Shown in pieces: positions 18,808 through 60,665 of a stretch of 64,000 nt of DNA (position 1 is its first letter; every line of letters begins with the position of its first letter). Both the position numbers and the translations under genes were made by a program. The DNA is taken from contig JACQCH010000017.1 of the NCBI GenBank assembly GCA_016201735.1, positions 7,910 through 71,909 on the forward strand, given 5' to 3'. This DNA is from Candidatus Omnitrophota bacterium (GTDB lineage Bacteria; Omnitrophota; Gorgyraeia; 1-14-0-20-64-10). The notes beneath the pieces were generated by a model, which did no database searches, was not told where the DNA came from, and was given only the letters and a program-made list of their open reading frames with translations.

Positions 18808-19287
18808 CGAACAAGGCCCGATGCCGGGAGCGGACCGCTCCACGCCAGGCCCCGTCTCGTGGATGGGCTTCTCAGACCCGCTCGACGTCCCCAGCGAGGC
18901 CGTCTCGCTAAACGTCGGCCCTCGCTCTCTCCGCCGAACCCAAGCTCACCGGCGGAGAACCATGCCCGCTCGGGCCTCCGATTGTCTTCGAACCCCCTCC
19001 CCGAGCCGGAGCCATCGCATGAGACCTTCGGGGTGGCAGGGGGCAGGCCAGATTCCGCCAGCAGGGCCGACGTTTCAGGCCCATGCCCTGACCGAATGGG
19101 AACCCAAGCTGAAATGAACGACTTTCCATGGAACGTCCTGTTGGATTCGGCCATCTCCCGATGCTCTGACATGGTCAATGTGAACCATTCATCCGAACAA
19201 GGCCCGATGCCGGAACTGGCCTGCCCCCTGACAGGCCCCCGAAAGAAACAGGGGTGGTACCAGTCCAGCATCGCTGTGAACCATTCA
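18808..19287. mobile_element. MITE-like repeat, copy B, flanked by 9-bp direct repeat TTATTCATC (18799..18807 and 19288..19296)
   Basis: ~480 bp non-coding element filling entire pilB-pilC intergenic space; shares core and terminal sequences with copies at 7630..7876 and 25975..26469; ORF-track ORFs inside (18780..19295, 18859..19665) are repeat-derived. Confidence 0.65.
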
Positions 19288-25974: not shown

Positions 25975-26469
25975 GTCCTGGCGTGGAGCAGTCCGTTCCC
26001 GGCATCGGGCCTGTGTTGGAACTACGAGAGGACCCCGTCTCGGGGGATGGGCTTCTCAGGCCCGCTCGTCGACCCCAGCGACTCAGAGCTTACAAGTGGT
26101 GCGGCCTCCTCTAGCCGCAGCCACGTGGTCGACTTCGCTAATCGAAAATCCCTCGCTCGTCCCCGGAATTTCAGAGCGCGGGGGACACCATGCCCGCTTG
26201 GGATTTTCATTGCCTTCGAACCCCATCCCCCGAGCCGGGGTCCTCGCAGATTCGTCGATCCTCGGGGTGGCGGGGAGCGGTCCGATTCCCGCCAGCAGTG
26301 CCGACGTTTGAGGCCGAGCTCTGTTGAATGGAAACCCATGCTGAAATGTACGACTTTCCATGGAACGTCCTGTTGGGTTTGGCCACCTGCCCATGCTCTG
26401 ACATGGTGAATGTGAACAACCCATCCGAACAAGGCCCGATGCCGGGAACGGACCGCTCCACGCCAGGAC
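25975..26469. mobile_element. MITE-like repeat, full-length copy C with ~45-bp terminal inverted repeats
   Basis: Left end GTCCTGGCGTGGAGCAGTCCGTTCCCGGCATCGGGCCTGTGTTGG vs right end CCGAACAAGGCCCGATGCCGGGAACGGACCGCTCCACGCCAGGAC (about 41/45 complementary); no credible ORF; contains sub-repeat module (26078..26130) that also occurs inside aroA and an alpha/beta hydrolase gene. Confidence 0.7.
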
Positions 26470-36246: not shown

Positions 36247-36666
36247 TTAGCCGCGATCTTCCGGCGGCAGCCCGGAGGAGGGAGCGACCCCGCGGCGCTT
36301 GGTCTCCTCCTTCGACTGGCAGGCGATGCAGAGACTGGCGTACGGGATCGCCGTCAGGCGCCTCCGGTTGATTGGCTTGCCGCAGGTCAAGCAGTCGCCG
36401 AACCGCTTCTCCTGCACTCGCTTCAACGCCTCATCAATTTCGTACAGGATGGACTGGGCGTTGGTGGCCAGACCGAGGGAGAATTCCCGGTCGTAGCTGT
36501 CGGTGGCGATGTCGGCCATGTGCAGGGTGTAGCCGGACAGATCCCCGGAGGCATCCCGCTGGGACTTGCTCAGGGTATCCTTCTCGATGTGCTTCATCGC
36601 CTGAAGGACCTCCTCTTTCTTCTTGAGGAGCAGTTTTTTGTATCGGTCCAGATCTTTCTTGGTCAC
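36247..36666 (-). CDS. DksA/TraR-family C4 zinc-finger transcription factor (GTG start)
   Basis: 139 aa; coiled-coil N-region, CLTCGKPI...CIACQ zinc finger; GTG start embedded in GGAGGGGCGGGGTGA motif. Confidence 0.7.
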   Translation of the reverse strand: MTKKDLDRYKKLLLKKKEEVLQAMKHIEKDTLSKSQRDASGDLSGYTLHMADIATDSYDREFSLGLATNAQSILYEIDEALKRVQEKRFGDCLTCGKPINRRRLTAIPYASLCIACQSKEETKRRGVAPSSGLPPEDRG

Positions 36667-36826
36667 CCCGCCCCTCCATGGATCGGGACGCCAAAACTGC
36701 GCTCAGGAGCACTGTGGGCGTCCCGAAAAGCTCCATGAGCTTTTATTCTCTGGGGCAACCCGGAAATTACCCTCATGCTCATCCTCCCTCCATGGCCCCA
36801 GAGAAATCCATGGAGGGGCGGGGTCA
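36663..36826 (-). promoter_or_regulatory. structured GC-rich inverted-repeat element between ileS stop and dksA start; outer arms TGACCCCGCCCCTCC / GGAGGGGCGGGGTGA pair and would sequester dksA SD + GTG
   Basis: On minus strand: ileS stop TGA is first 3 nt of 5' arm; inner stems UCUCUGGGGC/GCCCCAGAGA and GGGACGCC/GGCGUCCC; homologous element upstream of ADH at 42458..42691. Confidence 0.5.
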
Positions 36827-39694
36827 TCGTAAACCGAGAGTATACCACATGTTCACCGTTTCCACGCACCGATGGCACAGGGCCGGATGCTCCGAAGAAG
36901 CCCCTACCGAAGGCAGCCGCATCCAGCAGCGCTGGCACTTGGACCCGGCTGCCGGGCGGACATTCATCTGAAGTGCCGGGCCGGGCCCGGATCCCGGGAC
37001 AATCTCCAGTTTCGAAACGATGCAGGCCAGCTCCAACTCCGACCGGCGCTTCGTCAGAAAGTCCAACGATTCCTTATCCTGGACCAGGATCTCCAACTCC
37101 GCTTCCAGAGAATCTCCGATCTGGCCTCCCTCTCGCGCCTTCTCCAACGCCTTCATCGCCTGGTCTCTGAACTGAATCAGGCGGGCCCAGTCCGCTTCCA
37201 GCGATCGGTCCGGCGGCAGACCCGGAGAGATGGGCCAATCCTGCAGGTGCACGCTCCGGCTGCGGTTGGAGGAAACCGCACCAGGCGCCTCGGCGCTCCC
37301 GCCGCTGGGGAGCCCGAAGGCGGTCCAGGCCTCTTCCGCCGTCAGCGGAAGGATCGGGGCGATCAGGCGGATCATTGCGTCGGTCAGGATTGCCAGAACG
37401 GTTTGAATCTCCCGCCGCTGGGGATCCTTGGGGTAAAAAGTGTACAGCCGATCCTTGATCACATCGAGATAAAAGTTGGAGAGGATGCCCGTGCAGAATT
37501 CATGGATCTTCTTGACCGCCCGGTGAAACGCATATTGCTCGTAGGCATCGGTCACCTCCCGCACAAGGGCACCAAACTGCAGAAGTATCCAGCGGTTGAG
37601 CCCCTGCATCTTCTCCAGCGGGACCCGGACTTCCGAGGCCTGGAAATCGGACAGGTTGGCCAGCATGAACCGGAGGGTGTTCCGGATCTTCCGGTACACC
37701 TCGGCGGTCTGCGACAGGATCTCCGGTGAGATCCGAACATCTTCCCGATAGTCGGAGGCGGCCACCCAGAGCCGCAGGAGATCAGCCCCCAGCGAGGAGA
37801 CCACCTCCTGCGGAGCGGTGACGTTCCCCAGCGACTTCGACATCTTCCGCCCTTGGCCGTCCACGACGAACCCGTGGGTCAGCACCGCCCGGTAAGGGGC
37901 CTTCCCCTCCAGCGCCACCCCGGTGATCAGCGAAACCTGGAACCAGCCCCGGTGCTGGTCCGATCCTTCCAGGTACATGTCGGCTGGGACTGCGTGATCT
38001 TCGCGGCGCTTCAAGACGGCTTGATGACTGACCCCGGAATCAAACCAGACATCCAGGATGTCGGTTCCCGGTTTGAAATCGGATTTGCCGCATTTGCATT
38101 TCAATCCGGCGGGGAGCCACCGGCTGACCGGCTCGCTGAACCACCGGTCGCTCCCCTCCGGGTCCTTCTCGATCTCTTTCGCGAACCGGTCGATCACCCG
38201 GGAGTCCAGAATTCCTTCTCCGCAGCCAGAGCAGATCACCGCCGGGATCGGGATCCCCCAGAGCCGCTGGCGGGAGAGGCACCAGTCCGGCCGGGTCTTG
38301 ATCATGCCGGCCATCCGCTCCTTTCCCTCCGGCGGGATCCATTGAACCTGTTTCTCGACGGCGTCGAGCAGTTTCCGGCGGAGATCCTCATGCTCGACGT
38401 TCAAGAACCATTGGTCGGTCGCCCGGAAGATGATCGGGTTGTGACACCGCCAGCAGTGTGGATACTGATGTTCCTCTTCGCCGGCTTTCACGAGAGCTCC
38501 CCGTTGTTTGAGCAGTTCGATGACGGCGGGATTGGCTGTCTGAACCTGCTGGCCGTTAAATTGTGCGACTTCTTTGGGCAAGCCGACGAACTGTCCCCGT
38601 GAATCGACCGGCGCCAATACCTCCAGCCCGTATTTCTTTCCGATCGCGTAATCCTCAGCTCCGAACCCGGGCGCCGTGTGAACCAGCCCCGTCCCGTCCT
38701 CCGAGGAAACGTAATCAGCCAGAATGACTTTCCCTTCCCGCAATCCAAACGGATGCTGATAACGAAGTCCGTCAAGATCGCGACCGCGAAATCGATGAAA
38801 GATGGAGCTGGGATCTTCGGACAAACCGAGATCTTTTTGGGCCACTTCTGGCAAACGGGCCAGCGTCACCCAGATTTCATCCGGGTTAGTTCCTTTTCGC
38901 GCGACGTATTCATAATCCGGATGAATCGCCACGCCGACATTGCCCATCAATGTCCAGGGAGTGGTTGTCCAAATCACTAAATAGGCCTTCCGTGGCTGGA
39001 TTCCAAGAGGATTCATCCTAAGAGCGGCGTTCTTTTCCAATTCAAACTTCATGTAGATCGAGGGAGAGCGGTGCATCTCGTACTCCACCTCGGCCTCGGC
39101 CAGGGCGGTCTCGCAGGACCAGCACCAGTTGACCGGCTTCCGGGCCCGATACACGAAACCTTTCCCGACGAGCGTGCTCAAGACCTGCAGGGCCGCCGAC
39201 ACGTACCCCGGCTCCAGCGTCAGGTACGGATGCTCCCAATCCCCCTGAACCGCCAGCCGTTTGAACTGATCCCGCTGGATCCCGACGTATTTCATGGCGT
39301 AGGCCCGGGCCTTGCGGCGGAACTCCAGCGTGTCCACCTGATGCTTGGTAACCTTCAGCTCCTTCATCAGGGCGTACTCGATCGGCAGACCGTGGCAGTC
39401 CCAGCCGGGAATGTACGGGGCCTTCCTCCCCCGCATCCCTTTGTACCGGACGATGAAATCCTTGAGCACCTTGTTCAAGGCATGCCCGATGTGAATGTCC
39501 CCGTTGGCGTACGGCGGCCCGTCGTGGAGGACAAAGGCCGGCGCCCCCTTCCGGTGTTCCAGGAACTGGGAATAAAGTCCTTCCCGTTCCCATTGGTCCA
39601 GGATCTTCGGCTCGCTCTGAGGGAGATTTCCCTTCATCGGGAAAGAGGTCTTCGGCAGGTTCAGGGTCGATTTGTAATCGGTCACCGGATTCAC
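36824..39694 (-). CDS. ileS: isoleucyl-tRNA synthetase
   Basis: 956 aa; HIGH (PYANGDIHIGH), KMSKS, C-terminal zinc-binding Cys cluster. Confidence 0.95.
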   Translation of the reverse strand: MNPVTDYKSTLNLPKTSFPMKGNLPQSEPKILDQWEREGLYSQFLEHRKGAPAFVLHDGPPYANGDIHIGHALNKVLKDFIVRYKGMRGRKAPYIPGWDCHGLPIEYALMKELKVTKHQVDTLEFRRKARAYAMKYVGIQRDQFKRLAVQGDWEHPYLTLEPGYVSAALQVLSTLVGKGFVYRARKPVNWCWSCETALAEAEVEYEMHRSPSIYMKFELEKNAALRMNPLGIQPRKAYLVIWTTTPWTLMGNVGVAIHPDYEYVARKGTNPDEIWVTLARLPEVAQKDLGLSEDPSSIFHRFRGRDLDGLRYQHPFGLREGKVILADYVSSEDGTGLVHTAPGFGAEDYAIGKKYGLEVLAPVDSRGQFVGLPKEVAQFNGQQVQTANPAVIELLKQRGALVKAGEEEHQYPHCWRCHNPIIFRATDQWFLNVEHEDLRRKLLDAVEKQVQWIPPEGKERMAGMIKTRPDWCLSRQRLWGIPIPAVICSGCGEGILDSRVIDRFAKEIEKDPEGSDRWFSEPVSRWLPAGLKCKCGKSDFKPGTDILDVWFDSGVSHQAVLKRREDHAVPADMYLEGSDQHRGWFQVSLITGVALEGKAPYRAVLTHGFVVDGQGRKMSKSLGNVTAPQEVVSSLGADLLRLWVAASDYREDVRISPEILSQTAEVYRKIRNTLRFMLANLSDFQASEVRVPLEKMQGLNRWILLQFGALVREVTDAYEQYAFHRAVKKIHEFCTGILSNFYLDVIKDRLYTFYPKDPQRREIQTVLAILTDAMIRLIAPILPLTAEEAWTAFGLPSGGSAEAPGAVSSNRSRSVHLQDWPISPGLPPDRSLEADWARLIQFRDQAMKALEKAREGGQIGDSLEAELEILVQDKESLDFLTKRRSELELACIVSKLEIVPGSGPGPALQMNVRPAAGSKCQRCWMRLPSVGASSEHPALCHRCVETVNMWYTLGLR

Positions 39695-40816: not shown

Positions 40817-41631
40817 CTCCCTAGCTTCTTACTTCTTTGAGCGGCTGCCTGAATTCCGGCCCGAATTATTTTCCCCAGCCCGGCCCGAGCATACACCTTA
40901 AACGCCGCTTCCGTGGTTCCCCCCTTGGAGGTCACCCGGGCCCGCAGAAGTTTCGGCTCCTCGCCGGATTTCGCCAGCTTGGCGGCTCCTTCGGCGGTGG
41001 CCAGAACTAACTGCCGCGCCGCCTGTTTCGACAGCCCCAAGTGGACTCCCGCCTCAATCATCTGCTCCATCAGAAAAAAGAAATAGGCCGGCCCGGAGCC
41101 GCTGACCGCCGTGACCCCGTTCATCCAGCTTTCCGGAACCTCCAGCACCTCCCCCACTCCTTGAAAGATCCGTTTCACTATCTTGACCATCGAGGGGATC
41201 GCCGCCCGGCCGGGGGCGATCGCCGTCACACCGGCCCCCACCAACGCCGGGGTGTTCGGCATCACCCGGACCACCGGGACGGCCTTGCCGGTTGAACCAG
41301 CGCGGCCGATCCGTTTCTCGATCCAACGGGTTGAAATCCCTGCCGCAATCGAAATTAGAAGCGGCCGTTTGCTAAGATGCAGACGGATCTCCTCGAGAAC
41401 CCCCTACATCTGCTGGGGCTTGACCGCCAAGAGGATGAGTTGTGATTTCTCGGCCAGATCGGAATTGGACCGGGCTCGCCGAATTCCAAAGACCCGGCTC
41501 AATTTCTTAAGCTTCTCCGAATCCGAATCCCAGACAAGGATCCGGCCCGGCGCAACGAACCGGCTCGCCAGCATCCCCCGGATCAGGGCGGACCCCATGT
41601 TCCCGCATCCGATCACCCCGATCGTTTTCAT
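40813..41631 (-). pseudogene. proC: pyrroline-5-carboxylate reductase ProC interrupted by a single in-frame TAG (41404..41406)
   Basis: N-fragment ORF 41404..41631 (MKTIGVIGCGNMGSAL...AVKPQQM*) and C-fragment 40813..41274 are in the same frame; the 129 nt between read through as GVLEEIRLHLSKRPLLISIAAGISTRWIEKRIGRAGSTGKAVP without further stops. Confidence 0.7.
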
Positions 41632-42320
41632 TGAAAGATCGCCGTCCCGATCCGCACCATCGTCGCTCCTTCCTCCACCGCCACCTCCAAGTCCTGGCTC
41701 ATCCCCATGGACAAATCCAGCGAGGGGTCGATCCCATCCCGAAGCCGGCGCAATTGCCGGAAAACCGGTCGGGCCGATTCCGGATCGTCGGCAAATGGGG
41801 CCATCGTCATGAAGCCCGACAATTTCAGATTCTTCGATTTCAAGATCGCCGCCGCCAGCACCCTTGCTTCGTCCGGCTTACAGCCATGCTTGGCCGCCTC
41901 TCCCGACACATTCACCTGAACCAGCAGCTCCAACCCCCGCTCGGGCTGAGCCGGTCGAAGCCCGACGGCCCGACCCAGCGCCTCGACCAGCTCCAGCGAG
42001 TCGACCGAGTGAACCACGTCGAACAGCTCCACCGCGGCCCTCACCTTGTTCCGCTGAAGGTGCCCGATCAGGTGCCAGCGGACTTCGCGCCCGATCGCCG
42101 GCTGTTTCTGCTGGGCTTCCTGGACCCGGTTCTCGCCGATCTCCCGCACCCCGCAGGCAATCGCCTCCCGGATCCTCTCGACCGGAACTCCTTTGGTCAC
42201 ACCGATGAGACGCACGCCGGCAGGGTCTCGGCCTTTAGACCGGGCCGCTGCCGCAATCCGTTGCCGGATCTGCTCCAGGTTCGCGTCGATCACCCCGCCC
42301 CTCCGGAGTTCCGCTTCCAT
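41628..42320 (-). CDS. yggS: PLP homeostasis protein YggS (alanine racemase N-terminal fold)
   Basis: 230 aa; LIGVTKGVP...IGHLQRNK motifs; ATGA overlap with proC start. Confidence 0.85.
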   Translation of the reverse strand: MEAELRRGGVIDANLEQIRQRIAAAARSKGRDPAGVRLIGVTKGVPVERIREAIACGVREIGENRVQEAQQKQPAIGREVRWHLIGHLQRNKVRAAVELFDVVHSVDSLELVEALGRAVGLRPAQPERGLELLVQVNVSGEAAKHGCKPDEARVLAAAILKSKNLKLSGFMTMAPFADDPESARPVFRQLRRLRDGIDPSLDLSMGMSQDLEVAVEEGATMVRIGTAIFQ

Positions 42321-42457
42321 CCCTGCAGGGATGGAAGCGCTGTGCCGAAGGCACAGATGCCCTCGGCTGTCTCTCGCTTTAAACGATCCCTCTTTTCATG
42401 AACCTGTGCATCTCCTCAGACCCTGAAGAATCCACCCCCCTGCCGAGGGCATACTCC

Positions 42458-42691
42458 GGAGGGGCGGGGTCATGAAATTGCTATTACAGCACCCCGCTTC
42501 CACCTTGTCAACCGACGGAACGGCGTGATAAATTAGACGGCGTGACCCCGCCCCTCCTTTGGGCTCTCTGGCACAGTTGGAGGGTGGTCAACCGGGAGGG
42601 GTCAGCGAGTCACCTGTGCCAGAGAGAGAAATCTTACGAAAGATTTCTGGGACGCCTGAAAGGCGTCCCTACCAAAGGAGGGGCGGGGTGA
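42458..42691 (+). promoter_or_regulatory. three-arm GC-rich inverted-repeat leader (GGAGGGGCGGGGTCA / TGACCCCGCCCCTCC / GGAGGGGCGGGGTGA) with 18-codon uORF (42472..42528), preceding ADH GTG start
   Basis: Arm 1 42458..42472 carries SD+ATG of uORF MKLLLQHPASTLSTDGTA; arm 2 42543..42557 is perfectly complementary to arm 1 and 14/15 to arm 3 (42677..42691) which contains SD and GTG of the ADH; inner stems CTCTCTGGCACAG/CTGTGCCAGAGAG and GGGACGCC/GGCGTCCC. Confidence 0.5.
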
Positions 42692-43752
42692 AGGCAGCCA
42701 TCTATCGGGGGCCGAATGATGTCCGGGTGGAAGAGGTGCCGGTGCCGCCGGTGGGACCCGGCGAGGTACTGCTTCAGGTACAGGCTTGCGGCGTCTGTGG
42801 GACGGATCTAAAGAAGATCGCGCAGGGGGATCTGCCGGCTCCCCGCATCTTCGGCCACGAGGTGGCCGGCCGGGTGGTGGCCGTCGGATCGGGCGTCGGG
42901 CAATGGCGTAGCGATGACCGGGTCGTCTTCTTCCACCACATCCCCTGCCGATCCTGCGATCTCTGCCGCGTTCAGGCCTATGCCCAGTGCCCGCAGTACC
43001 TTCGGGTGGGGACCACTGCCGGCTTTGAGCCGGCCGGCGGCGGATTCGCCGAGTACGTCAAGGTGATGGATTGGATCGCGCGTGACGGTCTAGTCAAGAT
43101 CCCCAACGGGGTCACGGACGAAGAGGCGATTTTCGTGGAACCGGTCAACACCTGCTTGAAAGGAATTCAAAAGGCTGAGATCATTCCCGGTCGGCCGGTG
43201 CTGATCCTCGGCTCCGGACCGGTGGGGCTGATCTTGCTTCAGCTGGCCCGGTTGGCCGGCGGGGTGGTCTACGTCGCCGATCCCATTCCGGAACGCCTGG
43301 AGGCGGCCCGCCGGCTGGGGGCGGCCGATACGCACGACATCTCGGGACATTCCCTCCTGGATTGGGTCCGCCGGCGAATTGATCCGCGCGGGGCAGAGGT
43401 CGCCCTCGTCGCCGCGGCATCGGTGCAGGCCATTTCCTCCGCGCTGGAGGCGGTGCGGCCAGCCGGTCGAGTGGTCCTCTTCGCGCAAACTCGACTCGGC
43501 GAGACGGCCGCGCTGGACGTCGGGCAGATCGGCAAACTGGAGAAGGAACTGGTGGGGAGTTACAGCGCATCGATTGATCTGCAGGAGGAGGCGGCCCGGC
43601 TGGTCTTTACTCGAGAGATTCAAGTCGCTCCGCTCATCTCTCATCGGTTCGGGCTGAATCAGATCCGCGAGGCCCTCGGTGTAGCGATGCGGCCCTCCGC
43701 CCAATCTCTGAAGGTCATCGTCCAGCCAGGGTTGAACGGATCCACGCCATGA
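42688..43752 (+). CDS. zinc-dependent alcohol dehydrogenase (MDR superfamily, sorbitol/threonine DH-like), GTG start
   Basis: VKAAIYRGPNDVRVEEVPVPPVGPGEVLLQV..., GHE motif, structural zinc cysteines, GxGxxG; upstream 43 codons of ORF 42559..43752 are leader, not coding. Confidence 0.8.
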   Translation: MKAAIYRGPNDVRVEEVPVPPVGPGEVLLQVQACGVCGTDLKKIAQGDLPAPRIFGHEVAGRVVAVGSGVGQWRSDDRVVFFHHIPCRSCDLCRVQAYAQCPQYLRVGTTAGFEPAGGGFAEYVKVMDWIARDGLVKIPNGVTDEEAIFVEPVNTCLKGIQKAEIIPGRPVLILGSGPVGLILLQLARLAGGVVYVADPIPERLEAARRLGAADTHDISGHSLLDWVRRRIDPRGAEVALVAAASVQAISSALEAVRPAGRVVLFAQTRLGETAALDVGQIGKLEKELVGSYSASIDLQEEAARLVFTREIQVAPLISHRFGLNQIREALGVAMRPSAQSLKVIVQPGLNGSTP

Positions 43753-46669: not shown

Positions 46670-49600
46670 TTACGCGAAGATCAGGAGGGCCTCGCCGAAG
46701 TCCCCCCCCTTGAAGAGGCGATGGAGCACCACGATCGAGCCCGGCTCCAACAGCCCCTGCTTCTGTAAATATTGAAGCAGCCCCGCAGTTACTTTAGAAG
46801 CGGTCTGATCATTGACTTGAATCAGCACTTGATCCCGCCGAATTGAAACATTATCGCCCCCAATCACAATCGCCGCTTCCTCCAGAGTCTTCGCCCATCT
46901 AATCAACTTCTTGTCAATCGCATCGTGAAGCCCCGGGGTCACCTGGCCCAACCACCCTTGCTGCACATAGACCGGAACCTCCGTGCCAACGAATGCCTCT
47001 TCAAGCACTGCCGGCGGAACCATCCGGGCGAGGCCCTCCCGATATCCAGCATTTTCTGCCAGCTTCGAAAGGCCGTCGAATTTATCCGCGACATCCACCA
47101 CCCGTTGCGGATCGATCAGATATAGCAGGGTATCGGCAATGACCCGCCGGGCTATGAATTCGTTCAACATATCCCGGGCCTCCTCCGCCGTCGGCGGCGC
47201 CGCCAGCGCCGGCACCGGCGCTTCGGTCTTCTTCACCTCCTCCATCCCGGCGCGCAAGCCAAACTCCCTTGCCACGTCTGGAGCAAACCTTAGTACCTCC
47301 TCTTCAGAGAGCCGAGTAAGACTCCCATTTCTCATAATACGGGCATATTCGGGTAAGAAGCTATTCTGCGGATTGAGATATTTAACGTAGACATCGCCCC
47401 TTACCGTGAATGCGCTCACATTGTCCAGAGAAATGTGCCGCCCCAAATCCAAGAAGTGGACTTCCAAATACCCATCGTCCCCCGGTTTAGGTTTACCAAG
47501 TCGGAATTCCATGCCGGGGCGATTTTCAGGTGCGTCCATGTATGCAGTCTTGAGATGGGATTCCATCGCCGCACGCTTCATGATGCCCAACTCCTGCCTC
47601 ATCTGAGCATCAAGAGATTCCTCGGCAACTTCGGTTATGCCTTTCCTTGTAATACGCAAATAGACGGGAGTATAAGCTCGTTTGGGATCAAGACGTCGCA
47701 CATAAACGTCTCCGCCAAACGACGTAAAACCCGTCACTTTCGTCAACCTGTTTTCCTTCCCAATATCCTTTTGGTGCACATAAAGAAGCTCTGCGGATTC
47801 TACCAAACTAAATGCGATTCCAAGACGGGTGTCCGGATGAACTCTATTTATCTGACGATCCAATTCGTTATAAGACATGCGAGTGCCCAATGGGGCGATG
47901 ACATCCCCACGCAGAAGGCCTACCGTCGGCGTTACTTCTGCCACGTCATCACTATCAACGAGATACTCCCTACTCTCAACCCTAAGTAAAACCTTCCTGC
48001 CGTCGGAACTCAGGCCTCGAACCACATCCCCATTGACAAGAAATCCTTTCGGCACACGCTCTTTGAATCCGATATCTCCCCGGCTGTTTGGATGTATCCA
48101 CTCGATGACATTGACATATCGACCCTTAGGATCTACTACATCAACCATCTTTGTCCCACCATCTCTTAATCTATGTGCCCTCAATCCGTACAAAGGATGC
48201 CCCTTGAGCTCTTGCTTGAGGCCACTGAACAGGTCAAATGCGGAACAGAGCACGTCAGCAGCATCGCGGGCCTGTTCGTCTGTCACGACAGGTTTGAACC
48301 CATCAAACGAAATAGGCACTGGAGTGAGAACCTGAGGAGGAACCCTGGCTGGTTCCGGGGTATGTGGCTGTGGAGTAGGCGTTGTTAACGCATCGTAACC
48401 GATCTTTCCAACTACCCCAGCAGCAGTCCCTAATACTGCCCCCACTGTCCCCACCAGAAGGTCCCGCCTCGTTAAGCCTCTTCCCTTTTTTCCCTCCTCC
48501 AGCCCGGCGGCGGGAGAAGGTGGTTCTTGCTCCCATTTAATCTCCGCTTCCTTAAAATCCATTTTGGCGACAAGCTGCGCTAAAACTGCTTTAAGGACCT
48601 TTTGAATATCTGGGGCAGCTTCCCATCGAGCGAGCCCCCATTCCTCCTTTGAGAAATCGTTGAGGATTGGATTGAATTCCTCGCCCAGCTCGCGACGGTG
48701 GTCAGGTGTAATCTTAAATTGATCCCAATTCATACCGATAAAAAGCCCCAGATCAAATGCGGATATGCCTTTCTCTTGAAATTTCTTTAACAATTTTTTC
48801 TCTGGCTCCTCCAGCCCGGCGGAAGTCTTCTTCTCAAATGGACCCGAAAGGAGTTTGATTTCAAGCTCTAGCTCATCCGGAAACGCGGGGGGAAGTTCAT
48901 TGACTTGAAATTGATAATCGGACAACCCGTCAGCGAGCAGGCGTTCCCTTACGCCATCCAGAACTGTGGGAACATTGGACCACCCCTGAATCGCCACAGG
49001 AACTTTAACCGCATCTCCCCTCTCCAAATCCAAAGCCCTCTTCGGAAAACCGACCAGATTGATGGTTGCCGCTTTACTCACGCTCTTAAGAATTCCTTCA
49101 GCCTTCTGCCATGCCTGTTGTGGAGACAGCCCCCCCTCCAACTCGGCGGCGCCCGGTAGTCGATCGTTGTAGAGAATCATGGCCAGAGCAAGGGCATCTT
49201 GCCTCACGTCAACAATTCCACGGAGATCCAGTTCCAATCCTCTCCGTGTGAAAGCATACGACAGCGTTACTGAATCGCCCTTGATATCCTCCGTGGGTTT
49301 CTTGATGTCTAGATAGAGTAATGCGCCATCCGGACCTACGGATCCGTGGAGAGGTATTGTGTCTGACATCGTTATTAGATCCGCCATCTCTCCTATTCCC
49401 CTAAAAACGGCTTCAATCCTCTTTATGTTGCCCTTGACAACGGGGTCGTCAGCGCGCGTGGGATCTGAAGCTAGTTGAGCTCTAAGGACCTCAAGCCGGG
49501 ACGCAGCCTGAGTGATTGCCAAAGCCGTTCTTTCCAGCCCGTTGAGCTGGCGATTCATGAACTCGTAGGAGCGGTGATTGACTTGCGGGGAAAGTCTCTC

Positions 49601-52600
49601 CCTCTCTTTGCTAAGTGCAGTTTTATCCGATTCCTCCCGAATTGACCGGATCGTTTTCTCCAGCTCATTGAGCCGTCCGTTCAATCGCCCTGCAAGATTT
49701 GTGCGTAATCTTTCCATGTCGGCTAGAAGATTCCGCCCTTCTTGAAGTAAACGTCCAGCATCCTCATGGGTCATATTCTCTCCGGACAAATCCTGCCACA
49801 AGGCATTCGCCCTCGGAGACAACTTCTTGGCTTCGTCCGCCCCCGTTATGATCTCATTCGACGAATGGATCTGTGCCATGAGAATTTGAAGGAATTCCCG
49901 CAGGTCCGGATTAACAGGACGAGGCAGATCAGAAACTTGGCGAAGTTCCTCTATTTCGCGCCGAGGAAGGAAAACCCGTGCCCCAGATCGGCCCTCTTCT
50001 CGTATCAACAATCCTTTCTCAGGAATAGATTGGAATGCAACGTGCTTTCTCGAGATATGTTGAGGAGCTTCAACTCCCAGGAGTCCCGGTTTACTGCTCT
50101 CGCCTCTTCCAAAACCAAACTTCCCTTCAGAATCAAAAGGGATCATCCCTTCCCCTATTTTTCTCGGATCTGCGAACCAGAAGCCGCCCTTTCCATCCCA
50201 GGCGAGAATTCCCTGGATTAAACCGTTCGGTTCAATAGGGTTTTTATCTATACGATCTGTTACGACATAGACCGTGATTGCCCCAGGTTCTCTCAAGGCG
50301 TTCGGGGAAATAAGAATTCCTCCACCCGGAACTCCAAGAAGCTTCCTCTCTTCAACCCGATTTTTGTAATCGAACATGAGTGAGCTTCCCGTCACTCTAG
50401 ATTCCACTTTCTCGACCTTTCGATAGGTCTTCTGGACCAAACCGTCCAAGTCCAAGTCGGCAAGCTCCCTGGTCTCTTCCAGCCCAGCGAGATTGTTCTG
50501 GACAAACCAGACGTCCGATTCCACCTCCGCCGTGGTGATCTGCGTCCCATCCAGGAACCTCACCTCCGTCTCGCCTCCCTCCATCGGGACTGAATAGCTG
50601 ACAATCCGGACCGCGTCGTCGGGTCCCCTCACCCGATCCCCGCCGCGCAAATTCCTCAGATCTGGCCCCGTCAGCGCCTTCCACTGCTCTAACTCCTCCA
50701 TCCCGGCGGCGGTACGAGTACCCCAGGACCGCAACCCTTCCCGGACAGCGTAGAGGAACGTAAGGAATTCTGATGATTTCCGAGAAGGCAGGTTCTGTCT
50801 TTCTTTACCTATCTCCCGCAGGATTAATCCGTTGATCTTTAAGAGAACCGGATCGGTACTGAGATCTACGACTTGGCGATCGATATAATGTTTAAAAAGG
50901 AGGTCGCCTACTTCCCTCGCCAGATCCTCCCTTGCAGAATCCTGGACGAGACCTCCGAGAGAACGAGACGCTACCAACCGGTCTACAACATGATTCCGGA
51001 GTGCCTCTCGATCGGAGGTCCATTGCAATCCTCTCCGGAGTGACTCCATTTGGTTATCATCAAGAAAAACATCACCGCGAATGGGCTGCAGGCGGATTGC
51101 ATCTCCATCCTGCGTGATCTTCATTACCTTTGTCTTCTTAACTGTAAGAGTGCTTCCACTCTCCTTAAAAGGTTGGCGTTCCTCCTCTCCGGATTCATTT
51201 GTGGATACAAGATCAAAGCCGCTGCCGTTCCACTGAAGGGTAACCATCTGCATGCCCGGTATCTCGATCATCAGACCCCTCGTCAACTGGGCCGCAGCAA
51301 CTCCGGCAACTGGGATTCGCAGTCCACCCTTAGGAACCTGCGCCTGCTTAACAACAGTCCCATACTGCAACACGGTTTTCTTCGAAGCCGTCCGGAACCA
51401 TGCCGCGAATTCCTCTCCAGCGGCACCAAACAACTTCCGCTCAGGAGCAGTCCCTTCTGCTTGAATCCCAATTTCTTCAATCTGTGATTGAATCGCCTTA
51501 GGGGTACTGAGGATAAGAACGGGTTTCCCACTTTCTCCATCGGGCTCATGCCTAACCATGAATAATCTGGGTATCTTATAATCCCTACCACTATTCAGGC
51601 TCCTTTTCTTGCCCTTGGAATTTGAAAGCACAACCTTTCTATCTTTACCCTCGGCAAGTTTAAAGCGCGCCTCCTTCCCGGGCTGGCGCGCGGCAAGATT
51701 CAAGGGCCCTGACAGAACGACGGGCATCCTTACCTCTTCTCCCGACTTGAATCGAAATAGGATGCGCTCGCCAGGTTGCAGGCGGATGGGCCCCTCAACA
51801 ACGCCAAACGAACTTTGGTCGGTTATCTTTCCAGAAAGGATGAGCTCTAACAACTTATAGCGGCTCACCACGAACCGCACCTGCCCGTTCTCTCCCGGAA
51901 CCTTCATCTCCGCCAGTTGCCCAGGGTTAACACGGTGTAAAGCCGCAAGGTATAAATCGGCGGTCTTGTCTCGATAAACGGCCCCGTCAACCGGTTTCCT
52001 TTTTTTACGAAGTTTTTGGATATCCGCGATAACTTGCTCCGCCACCTTGCGCATATCACCGTTGCCCAGGCCGGACTTCGCAAGGCGGTCCAACGCCTTC
52101 TGCACATCTCCGCTCTCAGCTTTACCCAGCAAGGTCTTAACCACCGCCGCGCCAGCGAGTTCGGCAGCCAGTTCTTGAGTCATTATCCCTCCAGATCCGC
52201 CAATACGTGAATCGGCCCACTCTCTGGAGAAATTCTTTGCCGCTGCAAAAGGATGATGTCGATTCGACAAAGCAATAATCAAGGCGACTTTTTGCCATGA
52301 AAGCTGGCTCATGATCTGCGAATAAGCTCTTTCCACTCGTGCCTTTTCTTCTGGAGTCACTCGAGTGCCCGTCGTGAGTTTGAATTGAAGGACCTGGTAA
52401 GCTCCAATAACAGCCATCTCTCTTTTTAACCTCCCCCACGCTGCCTCGAGCTCCGCATCGGTTGGCTGCACGAATCTTCTGAGAACTTTCAAGGAGGGGG
52501 CCTTAAATGTTCCCCCTTCCATGCCGGCGGCGGGGGCGGAGTTCGGGGCGGCGCCGAGGGCTTTTTCGAGTGCTTCGAGACCGGCTTCCTGCTGTTTGAT

Positions 52601-52720
52601 TTCATTGGGACGCAGGGCGAGGGCGGAATTAGGCAAGGCAAGGCATAGACTTAGGAAAAGGGCCAAAATTCTGGGATAAAAAAATAGTTTCTGACTCATG
52701 AAATTTCCTTTGTACCTCAA
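46670..52720 (-). CDS. giant (2016 aa) orphan secreted protein with internal Tat-like/TM segment; no recognisable catalytic domain
   Basis: Sec signal MSQKLFFYPRILALFLSLCLALPNSALA|LRP; long mixed alpha/beta region; coiled coil ~aa 1100-1210; GRGLTRRDLLVGTVGAVLGTAAGVVGKIG then Pro-rich linker (~aa 1520-1570); C-terminal ~450 aa with internal duplications (GDVYVRRLDPKRAYTPVYLRITRKG / GDVYVKYLNPQNSFLPEYARIMRNG); DNA ~50% GC vs ~65% surroundings. Confidence 0.7.
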   Translation of the reverse strand: MRYKGNFMSQKLFFYPRILALFLSLCLALPNSALALRPNEIKQQEAGLEALEKALGAAPNSAPAAGMEGGTFKAPSLKVLRRFVQPTDAELEAAWGRLKREMAVIGAYQVLQFKLTTGTRVTPEEKARVERAYSQIMSQLSWQKVALIIALSNRHHPFAAAKNFSREWADSRIGGSGGIMTQELAAELAGAAVVKTLLGKAESGDVQKALDRLAKSGLGNGDMRKVAEQVIADIQKLRKKRKPVDGAVYRDKTADLYLAALHRVNPGQLAEMKVPGENGQVRFVVSRYKLLELILSGKITDQSSFGVVEGPIRLQPGERILFRFKSGEEVRMPVVLSGPLNLAARQPGKEARFKLAEGKDRKVVLSNSKGKKRSLNSGRDYKIPRLFMVRHEPDGESGKPVLILSTPKAIQSQIEEIGIQAEGTAPERKLFGAAGEEFAAWFRTASKKTVLQYGTVVKQAQVPKGGLRIPVAGVAAAQLTRGLMIEIPGMQMVTLQWNGSGFDLVSTNESGEEERQPFKESGSTLTVKKTKVMKITQDGDAIRLQPIRGDVFLDDNQMESLRRGLQWTSDREALRNHVVDRLVASRSLGGLVQDSAREDLAREVGDLLFKHYIDRQVVDLSTDPVLLKINGLILREIGKERQNLPSRKSSEFLTFLYAVREGLRSWGTRTAAGMEELEQWKALTGPDLRNLRGGDRVRGPDDAVRIVSYSVPMEGGETEVRFLDGTQITTAEVESDVWFVQNNLAGLEETRELADLDLDGLVQKTYRKVEKVESRVTGSSLMFDYKNRVEERKLLGVPGGGILISPNALREPGAITVYVVTDRIDKNPIEPNGLIQGILAWDGKGGFWFADPRKIGEGMIPFDSEGKFGFGRGESSKPGLLGVEAPQHISRKHVAFQSIPEKGLLIREEGRSGARVFLPRREIEELRQVSDLPRPVNPDLREFLQILMAQIHSSNEIITGADEAKKLSPRANALWQDLSGENMTHEDAGRLLQEGRNLLADMERLRTNLAGRLNGRLNELEKTIRSIREESDKTALSKERERLSPQVNHRSYEFMNRQLNGLERTALAITQAASRLEVLRAQLASDPTRADDPVVKGNIKRIEAVFRGIGEMADLITMSDTIPLHGSVGPDGALLYLDIKKPTEDIKGDSVTLSYAFTRRGLELDLRGIVDVRQDALALAMILYNDRLPGAAELEGGLSPQQAWQKAEGILKSVSKAATINLVGFPKRALDLERGDAVKVPVAIQGWSNVPTVLDGVRERLLADGLSDYQFQVNELPPAFPDELELEIKLLSGPFEKKTSAGLEEPEKKLLKKFQEKGISAFDLGLFIGMNWDQFKITPDHRRELGEEFNPILNDFSKEEWGLARWEAAPDIQKVLKAVLAQLVAKMDFKEAEIKWEQEPPSPAAGLEEGKKGRGLTRRDLLVGTVGAVLGTAAGVVGKIGYDALTTPTPQPHTPEPARVPPQVLTPVPISFDGFKPVVTDEQARDAADVLCSAFDLFSGLKQELKGHPLYGLRAHRLRDGGTKMVDVVDPKGRYVNVIEWIHPNSRGDIGFKERVPKGFLVNGDVVRGLSSDGRKVLLRVESREYLVDSDDVAEVTPTVGLLRGDVIAPLGTRMSYNELDRQINRVHPDTRLGIAFSLVESAELLYVHQKDIGKENRLTKVTGFTSFGGDVYVRRLDPKRAYTPVYLRITRKGITEVAEESLDAQMRQELGIMKRAAMESHLKTAYMDAPENRPGMEFRLGKPKPGDDGYLEVHFLDLGRHISLDNVSAFTVRGDVYVKYLNPQNSFLPEYARIMRNGSLTRLSEEEVLRFAPDVAREFGLRAGMEEVKKTEAPVPALAAPPTAEEARDMLNEFIARRVIADTLLYLIDPQRVVDVADKFDGLSKLAENAGYREGLARMVPPAVLEEAFVGTEVPVYVQQGWLGQVTPGLHDAIDKKLIRWAKTLEEAAIVIGGDNVSIRRDQVLIQVNDQTASKVTAGLLQYLQKQGLLEPGSIVVLHRLFKGGDFGEALLIFA

Positions 52721-60380: not shown

Positions 60381-60650
60381 TCTGAGGGGAAAACCATTGC
60401 GTGGTTTTCCCCTCAGGACTCCCCAATCCAGCAAAAGCAATCGGTCTCGTTGGGGGAGATCTCCCATCTCCCCCAACATCCCCCTCTTCCAGAGGAAGGC
60501 CCCGGCTCGGTGGATGAGTTCGAAGACCCTCGGAGGCCCGAGCGGGCATGGTTCTCCGCCTGTGAGCTTAATTATGGCGGAGAGAGCGAGGGCCGGAGTA
60601 GGAGCGAGGCGGACACGCTGGGTCCGCCGAGCGTGTCTGAGAACTCGCCA
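60381..60650. mobile_element. two strong hairpins (60381..60416, 60450..60476) plus inverted partial MITE-like copy E (60478..60650) in divergent GDPD/hydrolase intergenic region
   Basis: 60478..60650 is reverse complement of the left half of copy B (e.g. GGAGGCCCGAGCGGGCATGGTTCTCCGCC); hairpins CTGAGGGGAAAACCA/TGGTTTTCCCCTCAG and TTGGGGGAGAT/ATCTCCCCCAA. Confidence 0.5.
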
Positions 60651-60665
60651 CCGAGCCGGGGCCGG

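Follow-up and report, generated by a model that had tools for sequence, protein, structure and literature searches.

A MITE-like element in the start codons of an Omnitrophota bacterium that may be transparent to translation

Genes in a genome of Candidatus Omnitrophota are interrupted, exactly at their start codons, by a small mobile element. We find three copies of this element, E1, E2 and E3, in a stretch of 64,000 nucleotides (nt) of contig JACQCH010000017.1 (the window, from here on). Its place is within the TGA of NTGA start codons, often where the stop and start of two operon genes overlap. The TGA on its 5' side preserves both the upstream stop codon and the ancestral start codon. The element rebuilds a stop codon, a Shine-Dalgarno (SD)-like GGAGG and a GTG start. 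Two features of its interior are conserved: a four-way junction and one open reading frame (ORF). By its structure the element belongs to the miniature inverted-repeat transposable elements (MITEs).

We propose that this MITE-like element is "translationally transparent". It would work through a leader ORF that ends in a GTGA stop-start overlap with the host gene. We give this proposal a probability of about 0.6. If ribosomes read through the element and re-initiate, then the element is nearly neutral for gene expression. Hence we infer that it is selfish DNA and not a dedicated regulator of the alcohol dehydrogenase (ADH) gene next to E3, which is how an earlier note on this DNA had interpreted part of it.

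Three insertions in the window

The 13-mer GGAGGGGCGGGGT occurs exactly six times in the window, at 36665(-), 36812(+), 42292(-), 42458(+), 42545(-) and 42677(+). The six arms pair as three separate units of 150-185 nt, each of the form TGA-CCCCGCCCCTCC-[three hairpins]-GGAGGGGCGGGG-TGA (Table 1). A gapped pattern for such a paired-arm unit matches three times in the window and never in 100 shuffles. The earlier note had described only three 15-nt arms. These are present at 42458-42472 (arm 1), 42543-42557 (arm 2) and 42677-42691 (arm 3). A fourth arm at 42290-42304 (arm 0) and two more at 36663-36677 and 36812-36826 were missed, and the pairs were grouped wrongly. Within each of our pairs complementarity runs on inward, as a repeat finder shows (Table 1). 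Hence the true units are arm 0 with arm 1 (E2) and arm 2 with arm 3 (E3), not arm 1 with arm 2. The pattern of three arms is the joint product of two neighbouring copies.

Relaxed arm searches and blastn of the interiors found no degenerate or solo copies in the window or in the relatives' loci. There was no match to Rfam, neither at gathering thresholds over the whole window nor in a permissive search at the locus.

Table 1. Coordinates of the three elements, their parts and the adjoining genes in the window
Feature	Position	Strand	Remarks
Element E1	36663-36826	minus	two-arm unit; arms 36665-36683/36806-36824, 19 nt, perfect
Element E2	42290-42473	minus	two-arm unit; arms 42289-42309/42453-42473, 21 nt
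Element E3	42543-42691	plus	two-arm unit; arms 18 nt, 100% complementary (the strands of P1 below)
E3 5' TGA	42543-45	+	sequence
E3 5' terminal repeat CCCCGCCCCTCC	42546-57	+	sequence
E3 helix P1, 5' strand	42545..42562	+	pairs with 42672-42689
E3 hairpin P2 CTCTCTGGCACAG…CTGTGCCAGAGAG, purine-rich variable apex	42564..42626	+	fold, compensatory changes
E3 hairpin P3 AGAAATCTT/AAGATTTCT	42627..42648	+	fold, compensatory changes
E3 hairpin P4 GGGACGCCT/AGGCGTCCC	42649..42669	+	fold, compensatory changes
E3 helix P1, 3' strand	42672..42689	+	holds GGAGG (42677-81) and first two bases of ADH GTG (42688-90)
E3 3' terminal repeat GGAGGGGCGGGG	42677-88	+	sequence
E3 3' TGA	42689-91	+	sequence
Leader ORF through E3	42542..42691	+	GTG 42542, 49 codons (VTPPLL…KGGAG), TGA overlapping ADH GTG as GTGA
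Zn-dependent alcohol dehydrogenase gene	42688..43752	+	354 aa, first of tandem pair
Predicted ADH promoter TTGTCA-N18-TAAATT	42505..42534	+	-35 at 42505, -10 at 42529-42534, TG upstream
E2 layout	42290..42473	-	flank ATGA 42473-42470, core 42469-42293, 3' TGA 42292-42290
YggS-family (Ala_racemase_N) gene	41628..42293	-	start GTG 42293-42291 formed by E2
18-codon ORF of the earlier note	42472..42528	+	within 69-nt promoter spacer between E2 and E3
E1 and flank	36663..36827	-	core 36823-36666; 3' TGA 36665-63; GTG 36666-64 starts dksA-like gene
Leader ORF through E1	from ATG 36827	-	54 codons (MTPPLH…HGGAG) to TGA
DksA/TraR-family gene	36247..36666	-	3' of E1
Isoleucyl-tRNA synthetase gene (ileS)	36824..39694	-	TGA stop is the 5' TGA of E1

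Relatives carry the same loci without the element. The DksA-like protein encoded next to E1 has many close homologs, and the named ones come from metagenome-assembled genomes (MAGs) of Candidatus Omnitrophica. On the contigs that carry these homologs the gene order proC-yggT-PNP-ileS-dksA-lspA-lgt is kept. In one of them (L174) the E1 site is empty and reads gtggtatact…cgATGAccaagaa, in a longer stretch …gtggtatactgaaggtttgcgATGAccaagaaggat…. The filled site in the window reads …gtggtatactctcggtttacgATGA[CCCC…158 nt…GGGG]TGAccaagaaagat… (…cgATGA[158 nt]TGAccaagaa). L173 and L169 (DksA 92% identical) are likewise empty. The E2 site is empty in three relatives (L175, L176, L177: …TGTATAATnnnnnnttcATG…). 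For E3 we find the empty site in L179 (TTGACG-N15-TGATAAGTTgacgatATGAaagcagcg) and in L177 (TTGACC-N15-TGGTAACGTgggcggcGTGAaggcagcg), and the filled site in the window (TTGTCA-N15-TGATAAATTagacggcGTGA[E3]TGAaggcagcc). Empty sites carry a single NTGA, whereas filled sites carry a TGA on both sides. Since the orthologous loci of relatives are empty at NTGA, all three copies in the window are lineage-specific insertions, with TGA flanking each side. E2 and E3 entered independently, into the start codons of two divergent, leaderless-looking genes, the yggS-like gene and the ADH gene.

The base in front of the 5' TGA is A or G, giving ATGA, ATGA and GTGA among the three window copies. At E1 the stop codon of ileS (TGA 36826-24) overlaps the ancestral ATG (36827-25). 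In all three copies the GTG start of the host gene consists of the last G of the element and the next TG, and it lies 6 nt past the GGAGG of the element. The assignment of the ADH SD and GTG start to arm 3, already made in the earlier note, is confirmed. The same GTG at 42688 is picked by the gene caller on an independent assembly, and ADH homologs begin MKAAVYRG.

Two observations concern the neighbourhood of E2. In L177, the closest relative sample, a ParE/PhdYeFM toxin-antitoxin pair (1863-2391) lies between yggS and the ADH pair, the interval that holds E2 and E3 in the window. This interval is evidently an insertion hotspot. Furthermore, the ATG in the flank of E2 shares its frame with the GTG of yggS, 180 nt away, and a single TGA at codon 26 interrupts this frame (window 42291-42473, -). 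A point mutation at that TGA would give YggS an N-terminal extension of 60 residues.

The predicted ADH promoter is conserved in the empty-site relatives L179 and L177. It puts the start codon 6-7 nt past the -10 box (7 nt in the window), a leaderless-type geometry. On the yggS side a conserved TGTATAAT box lies 9-10 nt before the ATG (L175, L176, L177). Similar boxes precede the flank start codons of other copies. Because the promoter boxes are conserved in relatives, the 69-nt spacer between E2 and E3 is promoter DNA. From this promoter the ADH transcript is predicted to start at ~42541. Arm 1 and most of the 18-codon ORF would then lie upstream of the transcript.

Extended -10 boxes (TGnTAnAAT-like) are found 6-11 nt before the starts of yggS, ADH, dksA and others, and they are conserved between relatives. 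In the window they lie at 42483-42534 and 36837-36842. Elsewhere they lie in L175 (4520-4545), L176 (4420-4440), L177 (1826-1850 and 2470-2505), L179 (2455-2505), L126 and L135. This suggests that many messenger RNAs (mRNAs) in the lineage may be leaderless or have very short leaders. An SD-like motif stands upstream of only 13 of 56 crude gene calls.

What does this mean for a regulatory switch? The earlier note had proposed an attenuator or riboswitch-like leader of the ADH genes, in which arm 2 alternates between arm 1 and arm 3 under the control of an 18-codon upstream ORF (uORF). Its starting points are real. Arms 1 and 2 are perfectly complementary over 15 nt, and the SD and GTG of the ADH gene are indeed buried by arm 2, in the perfect 18-bp helix P1. 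The inner hairpins CTCTCTGGCACAG/CTGTGCCAGAGAG and GGGACGCC/GGCGTCCC are present too, and we add a third one, AGAAATCTT/AAGATTTCT. Nevertheless, arm 1 is the 5' end of E2, a separate element on the opposite strand that serves the divergent yggS-like gene. Together with the uORF it lies upstream of, or inside, the predicted conserved ADH promoter. The ORF from ATG 42472 exists, but it overlaps that promoter and falls outside the predicted transcript. We judge it spurious. P1 is most likely opened by translation of a different upstream ORF, as discussed below. When we folded 42440-42720 with arm 1 included, the structure of minimum free energy (MFE) paired arm 2 with arm 3, so that pairing between arms 1 and 2 is not favoured. 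Relatives L177 and L179 have kept the ADH gene at an empty site, and the element precedes many unrelated genes. A conserved unpaired core to which a ligand could bind is lacking, and neither a terminator nor a match in Rfam was found. We consider such a three-arm switch hardly credible. Riboswitches and RNA thermometers in general were also rejected: there is no conserved unpaired core, orthologous loci lack the element, and P1 is far too stable.

Copies at the starts of other genes

How common is the element, and where does it sit elsewhere? Scanning a genome collection with a single arm (the 15-mer TSACCCCGCCCCTCC) gave at least 117 matches, mostly chance single hits in GC-rich genomes. Among the matches listed, the only true copy is L117, from a MAG. 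Scanning metagenome contigs for both arms gave 50 loci, a subset of which shares flanks and architecture. The result is a set of 17 unique copies with perfect arms, from the window, a GTDB MAG and several metagenomes. A profile built from the peptides that the element encodes independently led to an 18th copy (L182), which lies between mlaE and mlaF. This profile search returned four proteins, two of which were already known. Either there are few members of the family in public data, or gene callers seldom pick up their ORFs. With about 18 perfect-armed copies in the collections searched, the element seems to be rare and of restricted distribution. All copies apparently come from a few related Omnitrophica-like (PVC) populations, judging by the names of the closest homologs and by one syntenic MAG labelled Planctomycetia. 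A BLAST search with E3 against annotated plasmids and phages gave no match.

Nearly all copies sit at gene starts. In 17 of the 18 unique copies a long ORF with a genuine N-terminus (such as VKPKVVLAYSGGLDTS, VKRIVVLGSTGSIG, VKALVTGGAGFIGS and VIEIINLCKSF) begins at the GTG, which is made of the last G of the element and the duplicated TG. The host genes include ArgG-, Dxr-, IspE-, RibD- and MlaF-like ones. In eight copies the 5' TGA ends a long upstream ORF (160-1187 codons). On the 5' side the flank reads ATGA, GTGA, TTGA or, in a sub-group, ATGAA, which means that a start codon is retained. Start codons make up only ~13% of the non-disruptive TGA sites (a crude window count with crude gene calls). 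Thus finding 17 of 18 copies at starts is extremely unlikely by chance (p ~1e-14). The orientation relative to the gene is also identical in 17 of the 18 (p ~1e-4), and this includes the adjacent, opposite copies E2 and E3. According to the earlier note, arms that turned out to be the ends of a dispersed element with no association to gene starts would refute the switch. Half of this describes what we find: the element is dispersed and mobile, but it is strongly tied to gene starts.

Several properties fit a DNA element with symmetric ends. The interiors differ greatly among copies whose ends are identical. An independent Logan assembly has a contig that breaks inside E3. In one metagenomic copy (L168) the interior is inverted relative to its close relatives, as is expected for an element with symmetric ends. 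The only ORF in the copies is a frame of 49-61 codons, the sequence of which is not conserved.

A few loci deserve separate mention. The sole copy away from a start codon is the one in MAG CAZRTR01 (L117, 4846-5045). Its 5' flank is ATGGG, and the ATG of the downstream gene follows a TATAAT box and lies 40 nt past the 3' TGA. Read back from this 3' TGA, the frame has no stop for 143 codons and reaches into the upstream region. Another copy (L137, 2901-3057) is 96% identical to the element in L156 and has an ATGA 5' flank. It lacks the 3' TGA (flank GGAGCTACC), and the contig ends 28 nt later; this copy may be rearranged or recombinant. In L129 (2425-2445) the native C-terminus of RibD (…IIGGAG*) is encoded by GGAGGGGCGGGGTAATG, which is identical to the 12-nt end of the element and sits at a natural stop/start overlap with the next gene. 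This could be due to chance, or else be a solo end or a clue to where the terminal repeat came from. Six loci from metagenome Ga0207416/Ga0102924 (L122, L125, L127, L133, L140, L161) form an unrelated family of long, near-perfect palindromes of 140 nt (GGGAACCTCTCC-CCCCGCCCCTCCCCTAGGAAGGGAGGGGAG…) with the 12-mer inside. L128, L153, L155 and L163 are other, different palindromes that contain the same 12-mer.

RNA fold, open frame and re-initiation

As RNA, each unit forms a four-way junction, in which a helix P1 of 18-20 bp closes off three hairpins (a long P2, a short P3, and P4). The folds are extremely stable compared to dinucleotide shuffles: the MFE is -102 kcal/mol for E1 (z -8.78), -114.7 kcal/mol for E2 (z -9.83) and -100.2 kcal/mol for E3 (z -10.07). 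P1 is a perfect duplex of 18-20 bp in nearly all copies. The junction has 0-4 unpaired nt, and the sole large loop, at the apex of P2, varies in sequence and length. A P1 of at least 17 bp with exactly three branches and at most 4 unpaired junction nt is found in 15 of 17 unique copies, compared to 2.6% of interior shuffles.

Paired changes support this architecture. E1, E3 and three metagenomic copies align as one subfamily, and RNAalifold recovers all four helices from the alignment. Two-sided changes occur at 15 of 48 pairs, compared to 6.1±1.7 in column shuffles (0 of 500 reach 15). When the partners are slid against each other, only 0-3 two-sided changes are left. All four helices contribute. 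Folds of the sense strand contain 76 G·U pairs and folds of the antisense strand 39.

Two further ideas about the fold were dropped. A UUCG tetraloop would be an argument for selection at the RNA level, but the loop of P3 is a UUC triloop. A tRNA-like or RNase P reading of the cloverleaf was set aside as well, because P1, with its 18-20 bp, does not resemble an acceptor stem.

In 15 of the 17 scored copies (16 of 18 with L182) no stop interrupts, anywhere in the element, the frame ending at the 3' TGA. Of the remaining sense frames one is open in 3 of the 17 and one in 2, and the antisense frames are open in 4-6. In 2000 interior shuffles the mean number of open copies is 2.6 and the maximum 8. 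Furthermore, the start codon in the flank is in frame with the 3' TGA in 12 of the 17 copies that have an NTGA/ATGAA flank, where one third is expected (p = 0.002). L182 has retained a native SD, GGAGAG, upstream of its flank ATG.

The biases in orientation, open frame and G·U pairs point to selection on the transcript and its translation, and not only on the DNA. Can a palindrome that is selfish at the DNA level alone explain the same data? In such an element the hairpins would serve transposition, as single-stranded or cruciform DNA, and the open frame and the position at gene starts would be by-products of insertion preference. The stems do consist almost entirely of Watson-Crick pairs, and most changes in them are two-sided. 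The symmetric ends permit both orientations, as L168 demonstrates, and a four-way junction resembles a cruciform. However, an element of this kind would not be expected to follow the orientation of the gene so closely, even in the adjacent and opposite E2 and E3. Nor does it account for an open-frame excess that is confined to one sense frame, or for G·U pairs that are enriched on the sense strand. We therefore regard an explanation from DNA alone as improbable.

How, then, might a gene with a translationally transparent element be expressed? The element would be co-transcribed with its host gene, and the RNA would fold as the very stable four-way junction. Its closing helix P1 would bury the new SD and the new GTG. 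A ribosome would either initiate at the retained ancestral start codon or, arriving from the upstream gene, terminate at the 5' TGA. A ribosome that stands at the 5' TGA would already cover the 12-nt 5' arm with its mRNA channel, given its footprint and helicase reach. Translation of the open frame (MTPPL…GGAG) through the element would then unwind the structure. The ribosome would terminate at the 3' UGA and re-initiate at the overlapping GUG on the host gene. E2 is an exception: there, the 3' arm would have to be unmasked during translation of the 5' arm, or the RNA would have to be processed.

Processing may also be the general solution. The same mobile element could leave its host gene expressed if an RNase III-type enzyme cleaves P1. 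Cleavage would split the cistrons, free the SD and the GTG and leave stabilising stem-loops behind. Correia/NEMIS elements in Neisseria mRNAs behave as such processed hairpins. The perfect duplex P1 would suit an enzyme of this type, and the 3' arm has the best geometry for initiating directly (GGAGG, 6 nt, GTG). In E2 no open leader frame is needed. Moreover, the host seems to use few SDs, with many genes looking leaderless, so that a freed SD would matter. What processing leaves unexplained is the open-frame bias and the match of the length phase to the flank start. As the sole route we consider it unlikely, yet a more serious candidate than an element shaped at the DNA level alone. RNA processing and leader-ORF translation are compatible, and both could operate.

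A number of points weigh against translational transparency. The transcription start, the translation of the leader ORF and the re-initiation are all predicted from the DNA sequence. A start codon at the 5' terminus of the transcript, at the foot of a GC helix of 18-20 bp, should be hard for a ribosome to use. The length phase is wrong in 5 of the 17 copies, and in E2 the frame of the flank ATG meets a TGA after 25 codons, yet yggS looks intact. A target-site duplication of 3 bp would look the same as an insertion directly behind a TGA by an element that brings a 3' TGA of its own. The near-absence of copies from other harmless TGA sites could reflect target choice or selection. Since perfect 12-nt arms were a condition for entering our sample, copies under selection may be over-represented in it. 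The sample is also small, and members of one subfamily do not count as independent, which makes the p-values optimistic. In the loci examined, no arm pair 300-4000 bp apart encloses a transposase, and no autonomous partner with the same ends was seen (whole genomes were not searched).

Beyond the transparency of individual copies, the element may represent a whole class that colonises start codons and is invisible to expression. In this class the ends would serve at once as transposition ends, as SD and as donor of the first base of the start codon. The duplication would restore stop and start, and the interior would be bound to keep the junction and the open frame. We see this wider claim as plausible, at somewhat less than even odds. 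In a stronger form, the element may be a portable cassette for translational coupling or SD donation that the host has co-opted for otherwise leaderless genes, or its target choice may be mechanistically tied to start codons.

Neighbouring repeats, related systems and significance

The window contains other structured repeats. One of ~210 nt is present in two copies that are 89% identical (19034-19233 and 26268-26465), with a partial inverted piece at 25980-26003. Its interior is conserved, its 25-nt closing stem has changed on both sides (compensatory), and it has no match in Rfam. The two copies lie in intergenic gaps, between the genes for components E and F of the type II secretion system (T2SS-E/T2SS-F) and between FtsW and a GGDEF gene. 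Directly adjoining the repeat at 26268 is a palindrome-closed unit (26028-26245) with arms of 34 nt (88% complementary) and 150 nt between them. A unit of 166 nt (60498-60663) has perfect 16-nt arms, GGCCCCGGCTCGGTGG/CCACCGAGCCGGGGCC, and ends 2 nt before ATG 60666, the start of a lipoprotein-like gene (MAMAGLLIVTLSGCA). The frame of this gene is open back through the unit to 60312. This unit may belong to a second family of gene-start elements. Finally, the segment 48001-56000 has a GC content of 0.52-0.55, compared to ~0.60 elsewhere. It lies over and beyond an ORF of 2016 aa (46670-52720, -), beside an AbiEii-like gene, and may have been acquired horizontally.

The element conforms to the structural definition of a MITE. 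It is small, with 143-197 bp between the TGA repeats, and has no transposase gene. All copies share the same 12-nt ends, which within a given copy reach 18-21 nt. TGA flanks the three window copies and ATGAA/TGAA the copies of a sub-group, although a 3' TGA borne by the element would look the same as a duplication. The 64 kb hold 3 copies, 18 unique copies are known from different genes, and a comparison of relatives shows filled as well as empty sites. IS5-family elements (IS1031 group) and the PIF/Harbinger-Tourist elements make target duplications of 3 bp, TNA. They have this duplication and terminal inverted repeats in common with our element, a likeness that is only a lead to the mobilising enzyme.

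Two other classes of bacterial repeats do not fit. Repetitive extragenic palindromic (REP) sequences and REPINs, which are mobilised by RAYTs, are imperfect palindromes of 20-40 nt, single or as inverted doublets, without target duplication. Our units are longer (150-200 nt) and have three inner hairpins, 12-nt terminal repeats and flanking TGA. Elements derived from the IS200/IS605 family have subterminal hairpins and no terminal inverted repeats, insert 3' of a fixed target and have an orientation tied to replication. Insertion beside a fixed TGA is compatible with this family. The perfect inverted-repeat ends, which pair with each other, are not, nor are the adjacent and opposite E2 and E3, each of which points the same way as its gene.

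Bacterial MITEs that are co-transcribed with genes, such as Correia/NEMIS of Neisseria, ERIC, YPAL and Nezha, have been reviewed (PMC3184786). Like our element, they are non-autonomous and of small size, end in terminal inverted repeats and duplicate a short target. They, too, have filled and empty sites, occur in many copies, form very stable RNA hairpins and take transcribed intergenic positions. The differences lie in the relation to the gene. The target is TGA at the start codon here and TA there. Here the ends double as SD and give the G of the new GTG, and a frame is kept open through the element and ends in a stop/start overlap. Our element forms a four-way junction instead of a single long hairpin, and its interiors are very diverse behind identical 12-nt ends.

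The Rickettsia palindromic elements (RPE) were reportedly described by Ogata and colleagues in 2000, as cited in the review, as in-frame palindromic repeats. They are selfish repeats that survive in translated sequence by keeping an open frame (PMC3184786). RPE lie inside the coding sequence and become part of the protein. In our case the frame of the element ends in a TGA before the host gene, and the host protein begins at the new GTG. The element is thus a separate mini-ORF between the old and the new start, with its own stop. REP2 of Neisseria and the Borrelia IR are repeats immediately 5' of genes that bear the ribosome-binding site (RBS) and start codon of the downstream ORF (PMC3184786). 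Our element likewise supplies the RBS, GGAGG, and part of the start codon, but the promoters lie outside it and it has terminal inverted repeats. REP2 lacks such repeats, brings a promoter and is not known to be mobile. It also has no closing helix, no TGA duplication and no ORF that would be translated through it.

Known cases of translational coupling include the long-range pairing in RNA phage MS2, the ATGA/GTGA overlaps of operons and leader-peptide control of ermC. Coupling by sequestration of the RBS, and termination-reinitiation at an overlapping stop and start, are treated in a review (PMC12548453). As in those systems, a helix hides the downstream SD and start in our element, and a ribosome that translates or terminates there would open it. 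Unlike those systems, which are fixed features of operons, the whole device is here a mobile cassette at many unrelated genes. A search of the literature, including the literal end sequences, found no description of the element or its ends in bacteria.

For annotation and assembly the element is a warning. It breaks contigs, and gene callers either lengthen the N-termini of host genes into it or report its frame as a hypothetical protein of 55-58 aa. It also offers a testable system for how ribosomes handle a four-way junction of -100 kcal/mol at a start codon. If our proposal is correct, then the element is a natural, portable device for termination-reinitiation coupling across ~150 nt of extremely stable RNA. 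Selfish DNA could then invade a start codon without killing the gene, because it carries a repair kit: a stop, an SD, a start and an open frame with a stop/start overlap. The element would also be a source of new leader peptides and SD-led starts in an Omnitrophica-like lineage (PVC group) that seemingly uses many leaderless mRNAs.

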